Shown piece by piece: positions 3-24,785 of a stretch of DNA of 64,000 nucleotides. The notes beneath the pieces are model-generated. The model searched no databases. It was not told where the DNA came from and saw nothing but the letters and a program-made list of their open reading frames with translations. Source of the stretch: Escherichia coli O127:H6 str. E2348/69. Its GTDB lineage: Bacteria > Pseudomonadota > Gammaproteobacteria > Enterobacterales > Enterobacteriaceae. A program made the translations under genes and the position numbers. Positions within the stretch are counted from its first letter, which is position 1; each line of letters begins with the position of its first letter. The stretch lies in the NCBI RefSeq assembly GCF_000026545.1, contig NC_011601.1; one strand, given 5' to 3'.

Positions 3-758
3 ACCGTTCCTCAGCACCTGGCAGGAAAGCCTGCTGATTGTCTGGCAGTTACCATGCAGGCGGCGCAATGGGGCATGAACCCGTTCGCTGTTGCGCAGAA
101 GACGCACGTTGTAAACGGAACTCTTGGCTATGAAGCACAACTGGTTAACGCCGTCGTGTCTTCTTCAAACCTGCTTTCAACTCGCCTGAATTACCGCTGG
201 GATGGTGACTGGTCAAAGGTGAATGGCAAGAGCGACAAATCACCATCACTGACCGTTACAGTATCGGCAGTACTGAAAGGCGAAGCAGAGCCGCGCGAGC
301 TTACCATCAGCATGGCTCAGGCAGGTGTCCGTAACTCTCCGCTGTGGGAACAGGATCCACGACAGCAGCTTGCTTACCTGTGCGTTAAGCGTTGGGCTCG
401 TCTGCATGCACCTGATGTTCTGCTCGGAGTATACACCCCTGACGAATTGCAGGAGACAACACCGCGTGTTGAGCGCGACATCACGCCATCTGCGGCAACG
501 GCTCAGGGCATGAACAGCCTGATCAACTCAAAACCAGAGCAGAAGCAGGAAGAGCGTCAGCAGCATAAAGACGATCGCGGTCCTGAAGAGATTTTGCACG
601 CATTTTCCGGCGCGGCGATGAACTACAACACCCAGGCTGACCTGGACAAAGCATACAAATACGTTGCCCAGAAACTGGCTGGTGATGATGACCTGCTGGC
701 AAAAGCAACCGATGTTTACACCATCCGTTGTGACGAACTGAACGAAGTACCGATGTAA
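3..758 (+). CDS. Bet/RecT-family single-strand annealing recombinase (phage), 5'-partial, continues upstream of window
   Basis: Frame is open from position 3 with no stop. Translation 'QWGMNPF...NSPLWEQDPRQQLAYLCVKRWARLHAPDVLLGVYTPDE' parallels lambda Bet 'QYGLNPW...GPWQSHPKRMLRHKAMIQCARLAFGFAGIYDKDE', compared from memory. Confidence 0.55.
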   Translation, partial: TVPQHLAGKPADCLAVTMQAAQWGMNPFAVAQKTHVVNGTLGYEAQLVNAVVSSSNLLSTRLNYRWDGDWSKVNGKSDKSPSLTVTVSAVLKGEAEPRELTISMAQAGVRNSPLWEQDPRQQLAYLCVKRWARLHAPDVLLGVYTPDELQETTPRVERDITPSAATAQGMNSLINSKPEQKQEERQQHKDDRGPEEILHAFSGAAMNYNTQADLDKAYKYVAQKLAGDDDLLAKATDVYTIRCDELNEVPM

Positions 759-801
759 TCACCACTGCGGCGCCACGCGCGCCGCAAATGCAAGAGAGGT
801 A

Positions 802-1053
802 ATGATGAAAAGAGCATTTGGCAAAAAGGAACTGATGGCAGTGGTGCCGGTATCGATGAGCACCATTGACCGCATGGAGCGCAATGGCGAGTTCCCGCAG
901 CGCTTCTGGATCACTGATAAACGTTGTGCATGGAATGCTGAAGAGGTTGAGAACTGGCTTGATGAGCGTCAGGCCACCAGCCCGGCAGAGTTCACCGGAA
1001 AAAAGCCGCCGGTTGATCAGCGTGTTTACCGCCCAGTAAGTAACGCCGCATGA
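802..1053 (+). CDS. AlpA-family phage HTH regulator/excisionase-like protein
   Basis: 83 aa; 'MSTIDRMERNGEFPQRFWITDKRCAWNAEEVENWLDER' fits the AlpA/MerR-type HTH pattern; strong SD 'agagagg' 3-9 nt upstream of the ATG. Confidence 0.6.
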   Translation: MMKRAFGKKELMAVVPVSMSTIDRMERNGEFPQRFWITDKRCAWNAEEVENWLDERQATSPAEFTGKKPPVDQRVYRPVSNAA

Positions 1054-1162
1054 CAGCGCTGATCAGGCACTGGGAAAAATGGTCAGGATGGTACTTATTC
1101 CTGACCGCCGTTTCCGCCTGGCTGTATCTGCTGGCGGTAATTTTCAGAGAAGGCTGGATCCG

Positions 1163-1462
1163 ATGAGCAAATTAACCCGTCTTGAAAAGTATCACCTGAA
1201 CTATGTGTCTCAGCGTCAGGCTTCAAAGGTTGTCGCCGTTACTCCGGCGGCGATAGAGGTAGAAAAGCGCGCTGTTGAGCGTGAATCGAAAGGCCAGTAC
1301 CGCATTGCAGCCCGACTCTGGTTGCTGTGTATGGATGTAGCGGTCGGTGAAGTGGAGCGCGCCAGAATAGCGATACGCCGTGATCAGTGCATATCAAAAG
1401 GTAACGGCCTGCGCCGAGGCGAATATGCAGGGATCGGATGTCGCGGGGTGGTGTATGACTAA
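1163..1462 (+). CDS. hypothetical phage protein (start chosen at internal Met of the 127-aa ORF)
   Basis: ORF only; no recognisable motif; sits in the same-strand gene array between the AlpA-like and ASCH genes. Confidence 0.3.
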   Translation: MSKLTRLEKYHLNYVSQRQASKVVAVTPAAIEVEKRAVERESKGQYRIAARLWLLCMDVAVGEVERARIAIRRDQCISKGNGLRRGEYAGIGCRGVVYD

Positions 1463-1613
1463 TCCTCACGACAATATCAGCGTCGGCAGTATCACGCTGG
1501 TTTATTCAGCTCTGCGCCGCGGGTGGCTTGTACCTGGCGGAAGTGTCATACAGAACCCATTAAAGGCTCAGCGCATTGCTGAGCTGATGAACAGCAAGAA
1601 GGTGGCGGCATGA
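1425..1613 (+). CDS. hypothetical small phage protein
   Basis: ORF whose stop overlaps the next start (ATGA at 1610-1613); start at internal Met 'MQGSDVAGW'. Confidence 0.3.
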   Translation: MQGSDVAGWCMTNPHDNISVGSITLVYSALRRGWLVPGGSVIQNPLKAQRIAELMNSKKVAA

Positions 1614-2323
1614 AAGAGCGCGGAATGATTTTTAACGGAGAGATGGTGCGCGCCCTGCTGGACGGACGGAAGACGCAGACGCGGAGACCTCTCAAATGGA
1701 AGCAAACTCGGTTTACTGAAATAGCTGAACGCGAAGACGGTAGCCATTGGCCGTGGAGTGAGGATGCAGAAAATGTGTGCGATTTCTGGCATCCATGCCC
1801 GTTCGGTGCCGTCGGCGATCGCATCTGGGTGCGGGAGACGTGGGGCGTAGTGAGTCATGAACTGGATGAAGACGGTCGCATTCAGCCATGGATCCCTGAC
1901 CGACCTGCCACAGCCATTCACGAGATGCCGTTTGGTAATGGCTACTATTCTGGTCACGCTATCTACGCCGCAGATGGTGATTTTACATGGGGTGATGATG
2001 ATGGTTATGAAGATGGTCGTTCGTGCTGGAAACCATCTATCCATATGCCACGCGCAGCATGTCGCATTCTGCTGGAGGTTACCGGCGTGCGGGTGGAGCG
2101 CTTGAACGCTATCAGCGAAGAGGATGCGCGAGCAGAAGGAATTATTGACGGTGGCTGTCTCAATTGCGGTGAACCTGAACCATGCGGTTGCGCTAATCCA
2201 GATCCTGACGCGACAGATGCCTTCGCTTACCTGTGGCAATCGATCTATGGGCAGGAAAACTGGAACGCGAACCCTTGGGTATGGGTCATCGAGTTCAAGC
2301 GCGTTGAAGGCGGTGCAGCATGA
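1610..2323 (+). CDS. ASCH-domain protein
   Basis: N-terminus 'MIFNGEMVRALLDGRKTQTRRP' and C-terminus 'WVWVIEFKRV' resemble the ASCH family (e.g. YqfB 'ILAGRKTITIR ... FYVIEFKCL', from memory); SD 'aaggtgg' upstream. Confidence 0.55.
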   Translation: MKERGMIFNGEMVRALLDGRKTQTRRPLKWKQTRFTEIAEREDGSHWPWSEDAENVCDFWHPCPFGAVGDRIWVRETWGVVSHELDEDGRIQPWIPDRPATAIHEMPFGNGYYSGHAIYAADGDFTWGDDDGYEDGRSCWKPSIHMPRAACRILLEVTGVRVERLNAISEEDARAEGIIDGGCLNCGEPEPCGCANPDPDATDAFAYLWQSIYGQENWNANPWVWVIEFKRVEGGAA

Positions 2324-2913
2324 ACGGTAAATACACTCTGATTTATGCTGATCCTCCTTGGTCATACCGCGACAAAGCAGCCGACGGCGAGCGCGGCGCC
2401 GGATTTAAATATCCGGTTATGAACGTGCTGGATATCTGTCGCCTGCCAGTGTGGGATCTTGCCGCCGACGATTGCCTACTGGCAATGTGGTGGGTTCCTA
2501 CTCAGCCGGTTGAGGCGTTGAAAGTGGTCGAATCGTGGGGCTTCAAGCTGATGACCATGAAGGGATTCACCTGGCACAAGACGAATAAGCACAAAGGTAA
2601 CAGCGCGATCGGCATGGGCCACATGACAAGGGCGAACAGCGAAGACTGCCTGTTTGCGGTGCGTGGGAAACTACCGGCCCGCATGGATGCGTCAATCTGC
2701 CAGCACGTCACGGCGCCGCGCATGGAAAACTCGCGCAAGCCTGACATCATCCGCGAAAAACTGGTGCAGTTGCTGGGCGATGTTCCGCGCATTGAGCTAT
2801 TCGCCCGCCAGTCGTCACATGGTTTCGACGTATGGGGCAATCAGTGCGAAGGCCCGTCGGTGCAGTTGCTACCAGGCTGCTCTGTTCCGGTTGTAAGGAC
2901 GGAGGCAGCATGA
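2320..2913 (+). CDS. MT-A70 family DNA N6-adenine methyltransferase (orphan)
   Basis: 'YADPPWSY' DPPW catalytic motif near the N-terminus; 197 aa; start overlaps the ASCH stop (ATGA). No restriction endonuclease gene nearby. Confidence 0.7.
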   Translation: MNGKYTLIYADPPWSYRDKAADGERGAGFKYPVMNVLDICRLPVWDLAADDCLLAMWWVPTQPVEALKVVESWGFKLMTMKGFTWHKTNKHKGNSAIGMGHMTRANSEDCLFAVRGKLPARMDASICQHVTAPRMENSRKPDIIREKLVQLLGDVPRIELFARQSSHGFDVWGNQCEGPSVQLLPGCSVPVVRTEAA

Positions 2914-3089
2914 CAATGTTCAATGAGGCGGAGTTAATCCGCCAACTGGAAGAACAGCGCGCTGTGATTGTGCAGAAAAGTGCTCAAGTTAACTGGTTGC
3001 AAACTGAAAACAGTGTTTTGCACAAGAAATGTGAAGAACTGCAAATGACAGTTGATCTACAGCGAGAATTTATACAATCCAGAAATTAA
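2910..3089 (+). CDS. hypothetical small protein
   Basis: Start at internal 'MTMFNEAELIRQLEEQ' with SD 'aggacggagg'; overlaps the integrase stop by 4 nt. Confidence 0.3.
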   Translation: MTMFNEAELIRQLEEQRAVIVQKSAQVNWLQTENSVLHKKCEELQMTVDLQREFIQSRN

Positions 3090-4339
3090 TCACCTTCACT
3101 CATCCATCGCTCAAACTTCGACGGGGAGAATGGCACCAGATCGGTGTGCTCCCCGCTAATCCAGGCATCAACCATATCTGCCCACTGCTGCAACATGTAG
3201 GCGCGCTGCCTGGCGTACTCCGCTTTGTTGTATACCGCACGCACTCCCTTTTGCTCATGCGCCAGCGCCTTTTCAATCCAGTCTGATGGATAACCAGCCT
3301 CATGCAACAGCGTACTGGCTGTGCGGCGCAGGTCGTGCACAGAGAATTCATCAAGATGCCCACCAGCCTCGCTCACCGCTTCGACGGTGGTATTGATCAG
3401 CCTGTTCAGTGCGCCATTGGATAACGGCTTGCTAACCGAATAGCGCCCGGGCAAAAGGTAATCACTTCCACCAGCGCACATCTGCAGGCCAACAATGAGA
3501 TCCTGCGCCTGCTTTGGCAGATAGATAACGTGTGACCGGCTTCCCTTCATTCGTTCCGCCGGTATCGTCCATGTCCATTTTTTGAAATCGATTTCTGACC
3601 ATGTGGCGTTGGTGAACTCGCTTTTGCGAACCAGGGTGAGCAGCACCAGTTTTAATGCCAGTTTCATTGTGGCCATAGCCCCGACATTATCCAGCGCCCG
3701 GAAGAATACGCCTATCTCTTCAGGTTGCAGCGTGCGGTCGCGCGGCTTGAACATGGCTATTGATGAAGGCTTGATATCAGCAGCAGGATTAAACAGGCCA
3801 TGCCCGCGATCATTAGCGTGACGGTATACACTGCTGATTATCTCTCTGGCTTGCACTGCCGTAGCCCGGCCTCCACGTTCAACAATGCGATCGCACAGGT
3901 CACGCACCATGCCGGTGGTTATCTCAGCCATCATTTTGTTACCCAGCACCGGCATGATGTCGCGATCGATAACGGCCTGTTTCATCGCCCGGGTACTGTC
4001 AGCCAGAATGACGTGCTTCATATAGCTGTCGGTATGTACCGCGAAGGTTTCAGCACCACGGATCTTTTTGATACCGTCACGTTTCGCCGCAGCTGGCGAC
4101 TGGCCTGCCTTTAACAGTTTTTTGGCAGCAATGAGTTCTTCTCGTGCTTCCGCCAGGCTGATACCGTCACGACCGTACTGACCGATGACCAGCGTTTCCC
4201 GGCGCCCGTTAATGCGGTAGTCGTACCGGAAAGAGACAGAACCGGAAGTAAGCACCGCAACATACAGCCCGTCACGATCCGAAACCTTATACAGTTTGTC
4301 CTGCGGCTTGAGGTTTTTCAGTTTGGTATCAGTAAGCAC
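3086..4339 (-). CDS. int: P4-type tyrosine integrase (site-specific recombinase), GTG start
   Basis: 417 aa; N-terminal 'LTDTKLKNLKP...DGLYVAV' arm-binding type domain; C-terminal 'HDLRRTASTLLHEAGY...VRAVYNKAEY' contains the H-x-x-R ... Y catalytic signature. Confidence 0.85.
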   Translation of the reverse strand: MLTDTKLKNLKPQDKLYKVSDRDGLYVAVLTSGSVSFRYDYRINGRRETLVIGQYGRDGISLAEAREELIAAKKLLKAGQSPAAAKRDGIKKIRGAETFAVHTDSYMKHVILADSTRAMKQAVIDRDIMPVLGNKMMAEITTGMVRDLCDRIVERGGRATAVQAREIISSVYRHANDRGHGLFNPAADIKPSSIAMFKPRDRTLQPEEIGVFFRALDNVGAMATMKLALKLVLLTLVRKSEFTNATWSEIDFKKWTWTIPAERMKGSRSHVIYLPKQAQDLIVGLQMCAGGSDYLLPGRYSVSKPLSNGALNRLINTTVEAVSEAGGHLDEFSVHDLRRTASTLLHEAGYPSDWIEKALAHEQKGVRAVYNKAEYARQRAYMLQQWADMVDAWISGEHTDLVPFSPSKFERWMSEGD

Positions 4340-4463
4340 AATTCACCCGTAAAGCATCCATGGTTTGACGGTATGAAGAGTATACCTTTAAGGTAATACC
4401 GTCACCTGTACCGATGAAAAATGTGAGATAGAGTGAATAGATATGATGTGATATAAAGAAAAA

Positions 4464-4490
4464 CCCTCTGTAAAAACAGAGGGTTGATTG
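4464..4490 (-). terminator. guaA intrinsic terminator
   Basis: Hairpin ccctctg/cagaggg (4464-4483) followed on the minus strand by a T-run. Confidence 0.6.
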
Positions 4491-4531
4491 CATAACTGAA
4501 TAGAAATGATTAGCTGTGAGTTAGCTGTACA

Positions 4532-6109
4532 TCATTCCCACTCAATAGTTGCTGGTGGCTTGCCGCTGATGTCATACACCACGCGGGAAATACCATTCAC
4601 TTCATTGATAATGCGGTTGGAAACGCGACCGAGGAAATCGTACGGCAGATGTGCCCAGTGTGCGGTCATAAAGTCGATGGTTTCGACAGCACGCAGAGAA
4701 ACAACCCAGTCATACTTACGACCATCGCCCATTACGCCAACGGAACGTACTGGCAGGAAGACGGTGAACGCCTGGCTGACTTTGTCGTACAGGTCCGCTT
4801 TACGCAGTTCTTCAATGAAGATGGCGTCAGCACGGCGCAGCAGGTCACAATACTCTTTCTTCACTTCTCCCAGAACACGAACGCCAAGGCCTGGTCCCGG
4901 GAACGGGTGACGGTACAACATGTCATACGGTAGGCCCAGCTCCAGACCAATCTTACGCACTTCGTCTTTGAACAGCTCTTTCAGCGGTTCAACCAGGCCC
5001 ATCTTCATCTCTTTCGGCAGGCCACCCACGTTGTGGTGAGATTTGATGACGTGTGCTTTACCGGTTGCAGAAGCAGCAGATTCGATAACGTCAGGGTAGA
5101 TGGTGCCCTGCGCCAGCCACTTCACGTCTTCCAGTTTCAGCGCTTCTTCATCGAATACTTCAACGAAAACGCGCCCGATGATTTTACGTTTTGCTTCCGG
5201 ATCATTTTCGCCAGCCAGCGCTGACAAGAAGCGATCTTCTGCCGGTACGTGAACAATATTCAGACCAAAGTGATCGCCAAACATATCCAGAACCTGCTCT
5301 GCTTCGTTGAGACGCAGCAGGCCGTTGTCGACGAATACGCAAGTCAGGTTTTTACCGATAGCGCGGTGCAACAGCATTGCGGTTACGGAGGAATCCACGC
5401 CACCAGAGAGGCCGAGGATGACTTTATCGTCACCGACCTGCTCGCGGATGCGGGCTACAGCGTCGTCGATAATTTTCGCGGGCGTCCACAGGGCTTCACA
5501 CTGGCAGATATCACGCACAAAACGCTCCAGCATGCGCATACCCTGGCGGGTGTGAGTCACTTCCGGGTGGAACTGTACGCCATAGAAGCGTTTTTCTTCG
5601 TTGGCCATGATGGCAAACGGGCAGCTTTCGGTGCTGGCTACGGTGACAAAGTCGGACGGGATAGCGGTAACTTTATCGCCGTGGCTCATCCAAACGTCCA
5701 GCAGCGGTTTACCATCTGCGGTCAGCGCATCTTCGATACCGCGAACCAGTGCGCTGTCGTTTACGACTTCAACCTGCGCGTAGCCAAATTCACGTTCATT
5801 AGAGGCCTCAACGTGACCGCCCAACTGCATCGCCATGGTCTGCATGCCATAGCAAATGCCGAATACCGGTACGCCTGCTTCAAAGACATACTGCGGCGCA
5901 CGCGGGCTGTTTTCTTCGGTGGTGCTTTCCGGGCCGCCGGAAAGAATAATGCCGCTTGGATTGAAGTCACGAATTTGTGCTTCTGTCACATCCCACGCCC
6001 ACAGTTCGCAGTAAACACCCAGCTCACGCACGCGGCGCGCAACCAGTTGAGTGTACTGAGAACCGAAGTCCAGAATGAGGATGCGATGCTTATGAATGTT
6101 TTCCGTCAT
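4532..6109 (-). CDS. guaA: GMP synthase (glutamine-hydrolysing)
   Basis: 525 aa; '[36 protein letters not shown]...' recognised as E. coli GuaA. Confidence 0.97.
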
Positions 6110-6177
6110 TGACGCTTATTCCGAGGCAAGTGAAACAGATAATATAAATCGCCCGACATGAAGTCGGGCGAAGAGAA

Positions 6178-7644
6178 TCAGGAGCCCAGACGGTAGTTCG
6201 GGGACTCTTTAGTAATGGTCACGTCGTGAACGTGGCTTTCCTGAATGCCCGCACCGCTGATACGTACAAACTCCGCTTTAGTACGCAGTTCGTCGATAGT
6301 ACCACAGCCGGTCAGGCCCATACAGGAGCGCAGGCCGCCCATCTGCTGGTGAATGATCTCTTTCAGGCGACCTTTATAGGCTACGCGACCTTCGATACCT
6401 TCCGGCACCAGTTTGTCGGCAGCGTTGTCGCTCTGGAAGTAACGGTCAGAAGAACCTTTGGACATCGCGCCCAGGGAACCCATACCACGGTAAGATTTGT
6501 AAGAACGGCCCTGGTAGAGTTCGATTTCCCCCGGAGATTCTTCAGTACCCGCCAGCATGGAACCTACCATCACCGCGCTTGCGCCAGCGGCGATAGCTTT
6601 GGCGATATCGCCTGAGAAACGGATACCGCCGTCAGCGATAACCGGAATGCCGGTACCTTCCAGGGCTTCTACTGCATCAGCAACGGCGGTGATCTGCGGA
6701 ACACCGACGCCAGTCACGATACGCGTCGTACAGATAGAACCAGGGCCGATACCCACTTTAACGGCACTGCAACCGGCTTCTGCCAGCGCACGGGCACCTG
6801 CAGCAGTTGCCACGTTGCCGCCGATGATTTGCAGGTCAGGATATTTAGCGCGAGTTTCACGGATACGCTGCAGAACACCTTCAGAGTGACCGTGAGAGGA
6901 GTCGATCAGCAGAACGTCAACGCCTGCGGCAACCAGCGCATCAACACGCTCTTCGTTACCAGCGCCAGCGCCAACCGCTGCACCTACACGCAGACGGCCT
7001 TGTTCGTCTTTACACGCGTTCGGTTTACGTTCCGCTTTCTGGAAGTCCTTCACAGTGATCATGCCGATCAGGTGGAATTCATCATCAACCACCAGCGCTT
7101 TTTCAACGCGTTTTTCGTGCATTTTTGCCAGCACCACTTCACGGGCTTCGCCTTCACGCACGGTTACCAGACGCTCTTTCGGCGTCATGTAAACGCTAAC
7201 CGGCTGGCTCAAGTCGGTCACAAAACGCACGTCACGACCGGTGATAATGCCGACCAGTTCGTTTTCTTCGGTAACAACCGGGTAGCCAGCAAAGCCGTTA
7301 CGCTCGGTCAGTTCTTTCACTTCACGCAGCGTCGTGGTTGGCAGTACGGTCTGCGGATCGGTTACCACGCCAGATTCGTGTTTTTTCACACGGCGAACTT
7401 CTTCTGCCTGGCGTTCAATGGACATGTTTTTGTGGATAAAGCCGATACCGCCTTCCTGAGCCAGAGCAATAGCCAGGCGCGCTTCCGTTACGGTATCCAT
7501 TGCTGCGGAAAGCATAGGGATATTCAGACGAATAGTTTTCGTCAGCTGGGTGCTGAGGTCAGCAGTATTCGGCAGAACGGTAGAATGTGCAGGAACGAGG
7601 AGAACGTCGTCAAACGTCAGAGCTTCTTTAGCGATACGTAGCAT
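6178..7644 (-). CDS. guaB: IMP dehydrogenase
   Basis: '[21 protein letters not shown]...' recognised as E. coli GuaB; start set at the internal Met to give 488 aa. Confidence 0.95.
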
Positions 7645-19991: not shown

Positions 19992-20990
19992 CTAATAGTA
20001 ACTGCGCATCCTTCTTTCTCTGGATATGTTCAAGCGCGCTTTTCTCAGCACCAGCAACAGCGGCTTACTTCTTAACAATTCACAAAGCGTTATCGCCTTC
20101 GGTGAGTACTGTCTGGCTTGCAGCGCCTCTCTACGCTCTACCTCTGCGGCTTTTCTGAGGGCTAGCGTTTGTAAGTTGTAGTATGTTTTATCGCTACATG
20201 TAACGATGATTGGTTTCACATGTGATCGTTCGGGTGAGTCAGCCAGTGTTCGCTGTATCCTGCGGCGCTGCGCTGGTCTTTTTGCTTTTGACGCTTCAAG
20301 TTTCAACTGCGTACGCCGTACTTCAAAGTATCCCGCTGCTTCTGGGGTTATGATCTGCGATGCGTGCGTTGCCCAATTACTGGATGACGCCCATACGGAC
20401 ACTGATAACCAGTCGTACGGGCTTTTTTCTGCTCTGGCATTAAACTCCTTAAGTTTAGTTTTACCTTTTGTAAGGTACGATAGGACTTCAAAACTGTAAA
20501 CGAATCTAACATCTTGATTTTTAATTAAATTATTGCGACCCTCATATGGCTGGCGCTTTACCCACGCAACCAGCAGGTCTCTCGCTATGCTCTCATCTGG
20601 AACTTTCACAATCATGTGTAAATGTAGGGTATCCTGAAACGCCGCCCACTCAACACAATATATCCACGGAATACTGCGTCTCGTAAGCGAGCGTGTGAAT
20701 GTGGTTATCGCCGTTTTCAAAGTCTCCGGCGTGATGCACTGTGCTGGGCGTAAGGTCAGCAAATATACGTTTCCACCTTGTGTAGCATCCAGATCGATAG
20801 AGAGTAGACGTCTTTTGAAGGCTCTAAGCCTGTCAATCGAAAAAGCCACTTTGCGCTTTCTGATGTGGCTGTTTGGGCTTGTTTTCTTTCTTTGCTTGTT
20901 TTGGTTGCGTGGTTTCATGTAAGCGTCAACAAATGCACCACGCTTGCGCACGATGTATTGTTCAGCGCGATCCCCGTGATATAATTTCAT
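19992..20990 (-). CDS. HUH-type rolling-circle replication initiation protein
   Basis: 332 aa; 'TLHLHMIV' gives a His-hydrophobic-His motif; downstream 'SYLTKGK' is a candidate catalytic Tyr; ATG with SD. Confidence 0.55.
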   Translation of the reverse strand: MKLYHGDRAEQYIVRKRGAFVDAYMKPRNQNKQRKKTSPNSHIRKRKVAFSIDRLRAFKRRLLSIDLDATQGGNVYLLTLRPAQCITPETLKTAITTFTRSLTRRSIPWIYCVEWAAFQDTLHLHMIVKVPDESIARDLLVAWVKRQPYEGRNNLIKNQDVRFVYSFEVLSYLTKGKTKLKEFNARAEKSPYDWLSVSVWASSSNWATHASQIITPEAAGYFEVRRTQLKLEASKAKRPAQRRRIQRTLADSPERSHVKPIIVTCSDKTYYNLQTLALRKAAEVERREALQARQYSPKAITLCELLRSKPLLLVLRKARLNISRERRMRSYY

Positions 20991-21042
20991 TGCGAATATG
21001 TTCCTAAAATTACCCGCCTGGCAGGGCGGGTTTTTTTATGTC

Positions 21043-21432
21043 TTACAGGTACTTTTCCCCAATTGCTTGCGTTATCTCTGAGAACGACGATTCAGACACG
21101 TCCCCTCTGATCCCCCTAAGTATTCGTAACGCAGACTCAACCTTGCGTAATATCTTCGTGTATCTTGCATTGGTGCGCCATATACAAAGCATTCCCGCTT
21201 TGTCGAGTCGGTATTTTACCAAATCCCTTTCAGGAATGTGATATGCACCATCCATGCGCTGTTCGACGGGGATACCCCAGTCATTACGTAACAGAGTTAA
21301 AACACGGCTGCGCTCATGTCCACCAGCAGAAGATAAGTACCTGTCAAATTGGGTTGGGGTGAGGCTATGACCATCTAACAGAATATCGCGGATCTGTGCG
21401 GTAGCTTGGTTTCGTGTCAATGCTTTCATCAT
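21043..21432 (-). CDS. hypothetical protein (129 aa; truncated from the 231-aa ORF)
   Basis: Start at internal 'MMKALTRNQ' with SD-like 'aagggg' upstream; the longer ORF form would overlap the HTH gene in another frame. Confidence 0.4.
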   Translation of the reverse strand: MMKALTRNQATAQIRDILLDGHSLTPTQFDRYLSSAGGHERSRVLTLLRNDWGIPVEQRMDGAYHIPERDLVKYRLDKAGMLCIWRTNARYTKILRKVESALRILRGIRGDVSESSFSEITQAIGEKYL

Positions 21433-21439
21433 TTGCCCC

Positions 21440-21622
21440 TTACAGAAACCGGGCTGCGAATTGGTCGAGATCTGCAACCAACCATACTCTGCGCTTTCTG
21501 CCGTTGATAGACTGGACGGTGCAAGTCGGAAAAGCTGGAATGTAACGCTTATATTGGTAAAAGCGTGATAGACAAACGCCAAGATATTGCGCGGATTCTC
21601 GCGCGGTAAGGTAATTTTCCAT
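21440..21622 (-). CDS. AlpA-like excisionase/HTH regulator (60 aa)
   Basis: 'LTARESAQYLGVCLSRFYQYKRYIPAFP...NGRKRRVWLVADLDQFAARF' fits the AlpA/Xis HTH pattern; first gene after the integrase. Confidence 0.6.
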   Translation of the reverse strand: MENYLTARESAQYLGVCLSRFYQYKRYIPAFPTCTVQSINGRKRRVWLVADLDQFAARFL

Positions 21623-21824
21623 AATAACGATCCATGTTTATGTTTTGTCCACATTATGGGGCATCCTGCCCCATAAATACTGTACATAATTTTTTCAATT
21701 ATCCCAAGTCTACAACCAAAAAATCTCCCGCGTAGCAATCCCTATAGTTCGCCCTTGTTCTGTTTCAATTTCATATACGCTAGCTCCACACAAGCTGTAT
21801 CGCCACCATAATTTCGATCTCCGG

Positions 21825-23087
21825 CTAATTACAGTTACTATATTTTTTCATGGGGACGACGTTGTAATCTTCACCACTTTCCAGCGTAACCAGCAGTTCA
21901 GCCCACTGCTCCAATGCAGCTTTTCTCTCTTCAAAATAGTGGTGGCGATTATAAATACCTTCAACACCGGGTATTTTATGATTAAGACATCTTTCAGCTA
22001 TTACAGGATCAATCCCCAATGCTGCCATCTGGGTACGCATCGTACGTCGTAAGTCATGAATGCTAAATGGCTCAACATCAGGCATCTCTTTTAATACTGA
22101 AGGCAAAACCATATTCAGCGTACTGCGACTAACGTGCGATGTAGTCCTCCCCCTCCTTGCCGGAATTAACCAGCGGCTATTACCAGCAAACAGACGGATT
22201 TCCTTGATCCATTCGATAACAGGATCAGCTAGCGGGATGTCTATCTCCTCACCATTTTTTGCTCGATCAGCAGGAAAATGCCAAACTTTTTCATCAAGAT
22301 TAAACTCCGACCACTCGGCAGCGCATAATTCCATCTTGCGAACCCCTAGCGCGAGAATGATTTTAAACGTTAACTCATTCTCTCTGCTAATACCCCGCCC
22401 CTTACGCAGAGCTTTAAAAAACATTACTAGCTCCTCACGCGTGAGTGCTCGCTTACGCCCTTGCTCTTTCCCGCCTGCATCTTTTGAACTAAATGAAATC
22501 GCGGGGTTTACTTCAATCATCCCGCGTACAACAGCATAATCAAAAAGGCGCTTAAGCATTCTTAGCACGTCATTCGCAACGGTAGGAGAACCGCGCTCTA
22601 ATACATTCTGCAAAACATAGTCGATATGTTTCGGGCGTACATCCTCAATTTTCATTTTGCCGATAGATGCGACAATGTTTTTTTGTAAGCTACTGCGAAA
22701 TAACTCCGGATGCTTGTAAGTGGGTTCTATCTGCCGCGAGTAATACTCAGCGGCTAAATCTGATACTCGTTTTGCGTTCTTTTGCGCTTCAATCTTTTCC
22801 AATGCTTCAGCTTTTCGCTTCTGTTTCTCTCCTGCTACGTCATAACCAAGAGAAACACGGGCTGCCAGTTCTCTGGCGACCTCTCTTGCTTTTGCAAGAG
22901 AGAAATCAGTATACGAACCAATCAGCACAACTCGCGATTTTCCGCCTAACTTGTAACGAAAGCGCCAGTTAGGGAGTTTGTCACTTTTCCTAAATCGAAG
23001 ATAAAGCCCGTTTCCGTCTGCCTTACCTTCGAATCTCTCATCGGATTTAATCCAAGCTTTGATTTGTAGGTCAGTTAATTTTGCCAT
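21825..23087 (-). CDS. int: P4-type tyrosine integrase
   Basis: 'MAKLTDLQIKAWIK...GNGLYLRF' N-terminal domain; C-terminal 'HDLRRTMRTQMAALGI...GIYNRHHY'; start set at ATG 23087 with SD 'aggtg' (track start is a GTG at 23096). Confidence 0.85.
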   Translation of the reverse strand: MAKLTDLQIKAWIKSDERFEGKADGNGLYLRFRKSDKLPNWRFRYKLGGKSRVVLIGSYTDFSLAKAREVARELAARVSLGYDVAGEKQKRKAEALEKIEAQKNAKRVSDLAAEYYSRQIEPTYKHPELFRSSLQKNIVASIGKMKIEDVRPKHIDYVLQNVLERGSPTVANDVLRMLKRLFDYAVVRGMIEVNPAISFSSKDAGGKEQGRKRALTREELVMFFKALRKGRGISRENELTFKIILALGVRKMELCAAEWSEFNLDEKVWHFPADRAKNGEEIDIPLADPVIEWIKEIRLFAGNSRWLIPARRGRTTSHVSRSTLNMVLPSVLKEMPDVEPFSIHDLRRTMRTQMAALGIDPVIAERCLNHKIPGVEGIYNRHHYFEERKAALEQWAELLVTLESGEDYNVVPMKKYSNCN

Positions 23088-23131
23088 TACGAACACCTGA
23101 ATACGTTACATCGGGTACGCAAAGCCATCGT

Positions 23132-23216
23132 CACCGTGTACCCAATTTCTAACACCGTGTACCCAAACCGCAAGAACCTCTCTTTGGGTACACTTTTGTG
23201 TACACAATATCTTGCA
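23132..23216. repeat. Integrase-proximal repeat cluster: two direct 'caccgtgtacccaa' copies 21 bp apart, inverted 'tgggtacac', palindrome GTGTACAC; includes right boundary repeat (23185-23216)
   Basis: Read directly from the sequence; position between the integrase start and the der terminator suggests arm-type or regulator binding sites and attachment-site sequence. Confidence 0.5.
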
Positions 23217-23250
23217 TCTTTATGAACTGTTATGACAACTAGTGATAATA

Positions 23251-23280
23251 AAAAAGCCCGCAATATGCGGGCTTATAAGG
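23251..23280 (-). terminator. der intrinsic terminator
   Basis: Hairpin agcccgca-ata-tgcgggct followed on the minus strand by 'tttttatt'. Confidence 0.6.
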
Positions 23281-23312
23281 TTTTGTAGTGTTTAGTGAAT
23301 CGTGATGATTCG

Positions 23313-24785
23313 TTATTTGCTTTTCTTGATATGCTTCATCAAACGCTTACGCTTGCGCATCTGGGTTGGCGTCAGGGTATTACGCTTGTTCGCATACGGG
23401 TTTTCCCCTTCTTTGAACTGAATACGAATCGGCGATCCCATTACGTCCAGCGATTTGCGGAAGTAGTTCATCAGGTAACGCTTGTAGGAATCCGACAGGT
23501 CTTTCACCTGATTACCGTGAATCACCACAATCGGCGGGTTATAACCACCGGCGTGGGCATATTTCAGCTTCACACGACGACCGCGTACCAGCGGCGGTTG
23601 GTGATCTTCAACAGCCATCGTCATGATGCGCGTCAGCATAGAGGTCCCCACACGACGGGTGGAGCTGTCATACGCTTCACGTACTGATTCAAACAGGTTA
23701 CCAACACCACTGCCGTGCAAGGCAGAGATAAAGTGCACACGAGCAAAATCGATAAAACCCAGACGGAAGTCCAGCGTTTCTTTCACCTGCTCTTTCACTT
23801 CCTGGCTCAGGCCATCCCACTTATTCACCACAATGACAAGTGAGCGCCCACTATTGAGAATAAAGCCCAGCAGCGAGAGATCCTGATCGGAAATACCTTC
23901 GCGGGCGTCAATCACCAACATCACCACGTTGGCATCTTCAATGGCCTGCAACGTTTTGATTACCGAGAACTTCTCTACCGCATCGGTGATTTTGCCGCGT
24001 TTACGTACGCCAGCGGTGTCAATGAGCACATACTCACGTCCGTCGCGTTCCATTGGAATGTAGATACTGTCACGCGTCGTGCCAGGCATGTCGTAAACAA
24101 CAACGCGCTCTTCACCAAGAATACGGTTAGTGAGTGTAGACTTACCTACGTTCGGGCGACCCACAATCGCCAGTTTGATCGGCAGACTTTGCGGGTCGAA
24201 GTCGTCTTCCTCTTCTTCTTCGCCGTTCTCTTCCGCTTCAAATTGCGCCCAGTATTCGGCGTCTTCGTCGACTTCTTCTTGCGGTGCGAGATCTTCCATC
24301 CACGGCAGCAGCACGTGCTCCAGCAGACTTAATACGCCACGACCGTGAGACGCGGCGATCGGGTAGATTTCACCTAAACCAAGCGCGTAGAAATCAACCA
24401 CTGCCTGATCGGGATCCAGACCGTCAGTTTTGTTTGCCACCAGGAAGGTCGGTTTTTCACGGGAGCGCAGATGTTTGGCAATCGCTTCATCTGCCGGCAT
24501 AAGGCCCGCGCGCGCATCCACCATAAACAGTACGACGTCCGCTTCTTCAATCGCCAGCAGCGACTGTTCCGCCATGCGGGTTTCTACACCGTCTTCTGTG
24601 CCATCAATCCCGCCGGTATCAATGCAGATAAACTCACGGCCTTCAATTTCCGCACGACCGTACTTACGGTCACGAGTCAGACCCGGGAAATCCGCAACCA
24701 GCGCATCTCGGGTGCGAGTTAGACGGTTAAATAACGTGGATTTTCCTACGTTAGGGCGCCCGACAAGCGCGACCACAGGTACCAT
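23313..24785 (-). CDS. der: Ribosome-associated GTPase Der (EngA)
   Basis: Two GTPase domains ('[14 protein letters not shown]', '[14 protein letters not shown]'); start at internal Met gives 490 aa. Confidence 0.95.

Follow-up and report, generated by a model that had tools for sequence, protein, structure and literature searches.

The window, as we call the whole 64-kb stretch of Escherichia coli E2348/69 DNA that was analysed, carries an island of 7.47 kb, and the repeats considered here lie within it. Across the locus the gene order runs sinH, an IS4 remnant, an HTH protein with an AlpA domain, HalB, HalA, two genes of no known function, an integrase and der, with the AlpA-domain gene, der and every gene between them on the minus strand and located as follows.

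15959–16558, minus strand: AlpA-domain protein of 199 aa, with a C-terminal AlpA/excisionase-type HTH (Pfam Phage_AlpA, residues 145–191, 3e-08)
17065–18847, minus strand: Hailong pair, HalB (17065–17724) and HalA (17726–18847)
19992–20990 and 21043–21654, minus strand: two conserved genes of no known function (332 and 203 aa)
21825–23087, minus strand: P4-type tyrosine integrase of 420 aa (Pfam Arm-DNA-bind_3, residues 4–90; Phage_int_M, 110–197; Phage_integrase, 215–383)
From 23313, minus strand: der (RefSeq)

The order comes from RefSeq annotation combined with family searches. The integrase matched Arm-DNA-bind_3 with E = 1.1e-16 in Pfam, and the AlpA-domain protein additionally matched PHROG families named 'excisionase and transcriptional regulator', such that we regard it as a candidate recombination directionality factor or regulator. 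HalA scored 295 bits against its NCBIfam model and HalB 188 bits, slightly below the cutoff of 190. The 332-aa and 203-aa backbone proteins gave no NCBIfam or PADLOC match and one PHROG match, to a family of unknown function; they may be part of a mobility or maintenance module, because a 7-kb mini-island inserted at yicC of Klebsiella quasipneumoniae (locus L016) has homologues with 34–37% identity beside its integrase. RefSeq annotation and family searches revealed no primase, replication or packaging gene in the island, which thus shares with PICIs its int, AlpA-domain protein and dedicated att site and falls outside their definition (a primase/replication module plus helper-interference or packaging genes, in ~10–15 kb).

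The conserved backbone comprises 15839–16671 and 19545–23400, which are 91–98% identical among sister islands. About 450 bp of it (19545–19991) has no ORF of ≥85 aa, contains the window's only other cluster of three 9-mer copies (AAAAACAAT at 19666, 19678 and 19706) and twice carries the GC hairpin unit CGCCGCCYYTGGCGGCTTTCTC (19833–19854 and 19886–19907); a regulatory region and an origin are both possibilities for this segment. An Rfam scan of 15500–23500 returned chance matches below threshold only. Between yfgJ and the island (window 12904–15800; 509–6834 of locus L001) lies a locus encoding sinH, sinI and an adhesion-domain protein, together with the IS4 transposase remnant. As the der-yfgJ gap of K-12 is just 69 bp, two independent acquisitions have occurred in the gap of E2348/69.

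The repeat blocks

The repeats fall in two blocks. One occupies the 49–119 nt upstream of the integrase ATG (23087; RefSeq CDS 21825–23087), the side of the gene to which the original prediction had assigned it, and contains CACCGTGTACCCAA at 23132–23145 and 23153–23166, the two direct copies having the claimed start-to-start interval of exactly 21 bp, followed by an inverted copy TGGGTACAC (23185–23193) and the perfect palindrome GTGTACAC (23198–23205), both of which read as had been described. The far block holds TGGGTACAC at 15924–15932 and GTGTACAC at 15937–15944 and is situated downstream of the last island gene (15959–16558, minus strand), with 14 bp between the end of the block and the stop of that gene. 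The imperfect far-end copy that had been proposed about 7.3 kb away was recovered by a repeat search as a gapless direct repeat of 39 nt (15924–15962 versus 23185–23223) with 77% identity and a spacing of 7261 bp.

The placement of these repeats is more than chance. Exact GTGTACCCA occurs four times on the two strands of the 64-kb window against ~0.5 expected from base composition, GTGTACAC occurs twice, once in each block, and a check of motif density elsewhere in the window found every exact copy of either confined to 23136–23205 and 15924–15944. When the window was simulated 100 times under a first-order Markov model, only 2 runs produced any 9-mer cluster of this density (three copies in 85 bp, none overlapping). 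The doubled form of the motif described below, allowing ≤3 mismatches, was found once per arm and nowhere else in ~20-kb loci from relatives. The palindrome GTGTACAC was also considered as the operator of a dimeric regulator and was rejected: the corresponding sequence in relatives is TGGGTACAC, which is not palindromic. The palindrome is thus incidental, a one-base variant of the second half-site of a tandem pair.

Junctions and the reconstructed attachment site

To locate the ends of the island, we compared it with the empty-site strains Z1323HEC0423 and Z1323HEC0067, which have the same sinH/IS4-remnant neighbourhood and match the window up to 15862 before running straight into der. Alignment of the empty site with both island ends revealed that the duplicated core is a 21-bp sequence, the 3' end of der. 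The left core copy, where the island meets the sinH/IS4-remnant side, consists of the crossover heptamer and the native 3' end of der in its displaced position. Across six island copies, the left copy varies in its first eight bases with host lineage (TTACTTAC or TTATTTAT) and the right copy is always TTATTTGC; with host variants on the left and the island variant on the right, crossover is therefore confined to TTTTCTT and insertions have been repeated and independent. The C-terminus of der is KHIKKSK* with and without the island, whose own part rebuilds the last codons and the stop synonymously. The der 3' end is thus the insertion target, for which we found no earlier record: a literature search for der/yfgJ as an island site returned nothing relevant.

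These comparisons refine the earlier reading of the repeats as marking the attachment site. The repeats do flank the att site; the junctions themselves lie in the last codons of der, outside the repeats. Empty-site genomes extend 62 bp past the left copy of the 39-bp repeat, and der starts 108 bp past the right copy, so the direct repeat that integration created is a different one from the 32–39-bp repeat.

A metagenomic contig of 7.3 kb (L153), from an island with CBASS cargo, has the AlpA-domain gene, P' arm, core, P arm and int contiguous, and its arms and core are gaplessly colinear with the attP predicted by joining the ends of the E2348/69 island at TTTTCTT (predicted junction of the excised circle: ...CGTTATTTGCTTTTCTTAATATGAAACAC...). 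Because this contig matches the predicted attP, an excised circle or a tandem array with the mapped junction exists in nature, and the island appears to be still mobile. The features of the reconstructed site are listed below, with distances taken from the centre of TTTTCTT.

15842–15862: left core copy, TTACTTAC-TTTTCTT-AATATG, with the heptamer at 15850–15856
15880–15892, minus strand: IHF-like sequence AATCAAATGTATA, a weak match (1 mismatch) of low confidence in the interval that separates the core from the P' arm sites
15924–15944, minus strand: doubled site of the P' arm, TGGGTACAC-CCT-TGTGTACAC, centred +81 bp from the crossover
23112–23120, minus strand: degenerate copy cGGGTACgC (2 mismatches), of doubtful functional status
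23136–23144, plus strand: int-proximal single site GTGTACCCA, inverted relative to the doubled sites and beginning 49 bp before the doubled motif
23157–23165, plus strand: second int-proximal single site GTGTACCCA, beginning 28 bp before the doubled motif
23185–23205, minus strand: doubled site of the P arm, TGGGTACAC-TTT-TGTGTACAC, centred -129 bp from the crossover
23238–23233 (TTGTCA) and 23214–23209 (CAAGAT), minus strand: putative weak int promoter with an 18-nt spacer and 8 of 12 consensus positions, overlapping the phased boxes
23212–23246: four boxes with an exact 10-bp period (TTGCA 23212, ATGAA 23222, ATGAC 23232, GTGAT 23242)
23254–23274, minus strand: intrinsic terminator supplied by the island for der, a 9-pair stem followed by a T run, kept in the P arm of every relative
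23313–23333: right core copy, TTATTTGC-TTTTCTT-GATATG, with the heptamer at 23321–23327

The doubled motif has the form TGGGTACAC-N3-TGKGTACAC, that is, two half-sites with a 12-bp period, and the centres of the two doubled sites are 210 bp apart in E2348/69. Among six E. coli-type islands the P' doubled site is invariant except for one spacer base, with most P'-arm substitutions falling between the core and the doubled motif and the half-sites unchanged; the segment ATTTGATTTTAAAT is likewise invariant in the six copies, and the bases adjacent to it vary. On the P arm, the first half-site reads TGGGCACAC in five of seven E. coli/E. albertii-type copies (a T-to-C change at alignment column 111, window 23189), with the T kept in E2348/69, T28R and K. 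michiganensis, and so not every half-site is under strict constraint. The equivalent of roughly 23112–23120 is an exact TGGGTACAC in K. michiganensis and is missing from the other relatives.

The 10-bp-phased boxes have equivalents (ATGCG, TTGCG, ATGAT, ATGAT) at the same P-arm positions in all 10 elements compared, which makes 23212–23246 a candidate binding array for an AlpA-type factor. A scan with the IHF consensus gave the single 1-mismatch match at 15880–15892 on the P' arm, against window-wide counts near chance, and no match on the P arm.

Conservation in relatives and likeness to known systems

The integrase is present in 19 of 5,426 complete E. coli genomes and adjoins der in all of them. 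Further der-inserted relatives, with integrases 80–85% identical, were found in Salmonella, Leclercia, Enterobacter, Buttiauxella and Klebsiella michiganensis, where they sit in larger, satellite-like islands with int, an unknown gene, AlpA, a primase and SSB. Relatives at other genes (mipA in Citrobacter, yicC in Klebsiella quasipneumoniae) have the same GTGTACCCA motif. The diverged P arms of the five der relatives retain the doubled motif together with one to three inverted single copies, and the distances of the doubled motif from the crossover are +81/82 bp (P') and -129/130 bp (P) throughout, the latter being seen in E. coli, K. michiganensis, Leclercia, Enterobacter and Buttiauxella. 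A single copy begins at -49/-50 relative to the doubled motif in five of five (K. michiganensis, Salmonella, Enterobacter, Buttiauxella, Leclercia) and at -28 in four of five (all of these except Leclercia), such that the interval between single copies is kept at 21–22 bp in der-targeting relatives. The far end of the Salmonella island, sought through its SSB protein, led to other islands; the same route reached the Buttiauxella P' arm, which has the doubled motif at +81 bp. Wherever both arms are available (L016, L026 and L027), both carry the doubled motif. Two of these, L026 and L027, are viral-collection contigs with similar integrases, and in them attP is contiguous, with 212 bp between its doubled motifs.

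We then asked which protein the motif follows. Residues 1–90 of the integrase are 69–77% identical to the E2348/69 protein in every relative, whereas the remainder is 81–88% identical in der relatives and 57–63% at other sites; the AlpA proteins of the relatives are 36–43% identical to that of E2348/69 and have 66–76 aa versus 199 aa. As the motif is constant in relatives whose arm domain stays this similar, it follows the arm domain of the integrase, not core specificity and not AlpA. Part of this conservation is descent, since all P arms compared share one ancestor.

Several sequences fell outside this comparison. Decayed copies of the island have IS1 in the integrase region, or the arm-domain end of the integrase alone beside der (strains SL124 and OW1E2). 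A 9907-bp contig binned as 'Candidatus Ligilactobacillus excrementavium' (L005, DXAP01000044.1) carries the island, its integrase 99% identical and its two arms bordered by core sequence of the der type, and is most likely an E. coli contaminant from binning. High-GC phage contigs of ~61 kb (L017, 1631–1925; L018; L020) share the 9-mer TGGGTACAC as a tandem pair and a tandem triple ~220 bp apart, which surround an apparent tRNA-gene fragment (judged by eye; ARAGORN calls no tRNA) and adjoin a 428-aa integrase with no Arm-DNA-bind_3 match; the likeness of their arm sites looks like convergence or coincidence.

The closest layout among well-known elements is that of phage P4, whose attP was reportedly described by Pierson and Kahn in 1987. 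The P4 record (NC_001609) annotates 12-mers as 'attP arm sequence repeat' in tandem pairs at 3942–3965 and 4151–4174 around a core at 4078–4097, with an inverted copy of the arm repeat at the start of int. P4 and the island share an N-terminal arm domain, co-oriented tandem 12-bp pairs flanking the core with centres 209 bp (P4) and 210 bp (island) apart, an oppositely oriented copy beside the start of int, an int that abuts attP, and an AlpA/Vis-type excisionase. Their half-sites agree at 7 of 10 positions (ATGCCCCCAA in P4, GTGTACCCAA here), and P4 Int is 25% identical to the island integrase over ~400 residues (E 5e-18). The two differ in target, P4 inserting at a tRNA gene and the island at the 3' end of the protein gene der; in the number of int-proximal single sites, one in P4 and two in the island; and in the distance from the doubled P-arm site to the int ATG, ~16 bp in P4 and ~100 bp in the island. 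If the half-sites are homologous, the orientation of the tandem pairs relative to core and int appears flipped between P4 (L152, 3915–4174) and 23136–23205; the motif here is quasi-palindromic around GTAC, which may blur orientation in this comparison.

A similar arrangement has been published for HE-PICIs, in which two co-oriented copies of the doubled motif tgTGTATTGCantgTGTATTGCa are found at 81 ± 2 and 132 ± 2 bp from the centre of attP, a motif that was reported as absent from other PICIs (Mageeney et al. 2023, PMC10111431). These elements resemble the island in having a tandem 12-bp unit, in its distances (81 and 132 bp, 213 apart, versus 81 and 129–130 bp) and in pairing a P4-type integrase with AlpA. 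Their half-site is TGTATTGC as opposed to GTGTACCCA, the integrases beside the HE-PICI motif in viral contigs are 25–30% identical to that of the island, and their targets are prophage late genes as opposed to der. The GTGTACCCA motif of the island is not described in that study (PMC10111431). The L026 integrase is 61–62% identical to that of the island; L026 has the same GTGTACCCA motif and geometry, and its P arm and core closely match, compared by eye, the attachment sequence of the yicC-inserted Gram-negative PICI CfCIP10159 in the supplement of PMC10111431. Relative to Gram-negative PICIs, the der relatives at 80–85% identity have the typical order int, AlpA, primase and SSB, whereas the E2348/69 island is without primase, replication and packaging genes.

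In the lambda attP, as outlined in PMC2951348, a heterobivalent integrase uses sites on both arms (P1, P2, P'1–P'3) that are unrelated to the core, with direction-specific subsets; the island is alike in these respects and differs in arm-domain family, motif, site number and spacing. IntS of KplE1 (CPS-53) was considered as a relative with the same motif and was excluded, its arm sites sharing TAAA (PMC2951348). A tblastn search of the integrase against deposited phages gave nothing above ~31% identity among the matches listed, with all 788 matching records below 60%, and the integrase has no characterised close phage relative in these comparisons. Searching the literature for the literal motif strings returned unrelated primer sequences only.

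Probable binder of the repeats and possible wider role of the island

Taken together, the observations at this locus include an arm-domain integrase beside the site, a shared core with a mapped crossover and tandem repeats on both arms, which is the composition of a P4-type attP. The layout is ordinary and P4-style, with no new type of element and no new mechanism. We consider it likely that the repeats are the arm-type accessory sites of such an attP, now split between the ends of the 7.47-kb island. The original prediction had offered integrase arm-type sites or AlpA operator sites as readings; sequence comparison supports this pairing and favours the first, and we infer that the repeats are bound by the arm domain of the integrase.

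The second of these readings takes the GTGTACCCA repeats as operator or directionality sites of the AlpA-domain protein, whose role would be either arm bending during excision or control over the transcription of int. The single copies are direct repeats 21 bp apart upstream of int, an arrangement often used by directionality factors, an AlpA-domain gene lies at the far end of the island, and AlpA proteins occur in all relatives. However, each arm has the motif at a set distance from the crossover, and integrase arm sites are typically on both arms, whereas directionality factors usually occupy one. The motif also stays the same where the AlpA proteins have diverged to 36–43% identity and differ in architecture, although a conserved recognition helix could still read the site. 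Moreover, the neighbouring 10-bp-phased array (23212–23246) is a better candidate for a directionality factor, and the equivalent repeats of P4 are annotated as arm repeats. For the analogous HE-PICI motif, the choice between the Int arm domain and AlpA as binder was left open, with AlpA named as possible (Mageeney et al., PMC10111431). On balance we find binding of these repeats by AlpA unlikely.

Still less probable, and in our estimate a slim prospect, is that the repeats are iterons of a replication origin, or else a duplication, by chance or as a relic, that has no function today. Short iterons do occur in P4-like satellites (the 'ori type 1' repeats of P4), and the T-to-C change is tolerated in the first P-arm half-site. 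Against iterons, the island is without a primase or replication gene, and in six genera and at three target genes the repeats keep a fixed position relative to the crossover, not to a replication gene; against chance, the copy number is far above expectation. Finally, that the 32–39-bp end repeat is the attL/attR core made by integration, as its being the longest direct repeat flanking the gene set might suggest, is refuted by the empty-site genomes, which run 62 bp past the left repeat with der 108 bp past the right and show the duplicated core to be the 21-bp der 3' end, and by the excised-form contig, which joins the arms at that core.

Returning to arm-type sites bound by the integrase, a mechanism can be proposed in which the 420-aa integrase would be heterobivalent, its catalytic and core-binding parts recombining DNA at the 7-bp overlap TTTTCTT in the last codons of der and its N-terminal Arm-DNA-bind_3 domain contacting a half-site of 9–10 bp, GTGTACCCA(A). 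The two tandem pairs of half-sites would provide four arm contacts, one per protomer of an integrase tetramer, such that the arms could fold back onto the core. The copies in opposite orientation at 23136 and 23157 probably would serve as alternative contacts for one reaction direction, for int autoregulation, or for both. The AlpA-domain protein would act as directionality factor at the 10-bp-phased boxes, not at the GTGTACCCA motif.

Integrase bound at the doubled P-arm site would also repress int, as suggested by the position of this site at the putative transcription start, directly downstream of a -10-like hexamer that is conserved, reading CAAGAT in this island and CATAAT in the majority of relatives. 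A scan of the P arm with the sigma-70 consensus found no promoter, and this step is therefore weakly grounded. There are parallels elsewhere. In KplE1 the intS promoter is located within the att arm, where it shares sequence with arm sites for IntS and with sites for the directionality factor TorI, and each of the two proteins represses it, which amounts to negative autoregulation (Panis et al. 2010, PMC2951348). In P4, Int reportedly acts as a repressor of its own gene, contacting the DNA directly close to where int transcription begins (Piazzolla 2006, as cited in PMC2951348).

The slot between the two backbone segments (16672–19544) is where the island carries its cargo, in E2348/69 the Hailong anti-phage pair. 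Sister islands have in this slot a DncV-type CBASS (AH50 and L153), an ATPase with a DUF2357 protein (MB50) or a pair of unknown genes (T28R). With the same backbone and differing slot content, the island reads from its gene content as a small defence-cassette carrier in a family of mini-islands that swap defence cargo.

For the Hailong island of the prototype enteropathogenic strain E2348/69, the exact ends and the crossover are now defined together with the putative accessory sites, and the 3' end of der emerges as a site dedicated to insertion, occupied in at least six enterobacterial genera. The attachment site is a standard P4-type attP with a half-site sequence of its own and a previously unrecorded target, and it extends to a second integrase clade a doubled-motif layout that had been published for one satellite group and P4. 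In practice, paired 12-mers ~210 bp apart around the 3' end of a gene provide a signature for P4-type attP sites and island boundaries.

More broadly, we tentatively put forward two readings together, holding their combination as possible but short of probable. In the first, P4-type integrases may in general share a modular architecture, marked by a doubled motif with a 12-bp period at ~81 and ~130 bp from the crossover, in which half-sites (GTGTACCCA, TGTATTGC, ATGCCCCCA) may co-vary with the arm domain and core specificity (der, yicC, mipA, tRNA and prophage genes) may evolve independently. In the second, the E2348/69 element may be a distinct, minimal and still-active 'defence-cassette shuttle' derived from satellites, consisting of int, two conserved genes of no known function, a cargo slot and an AlpA-domain protein, in which the slot has a fixed place and Hailong, CBASS and other systems may replace one another.
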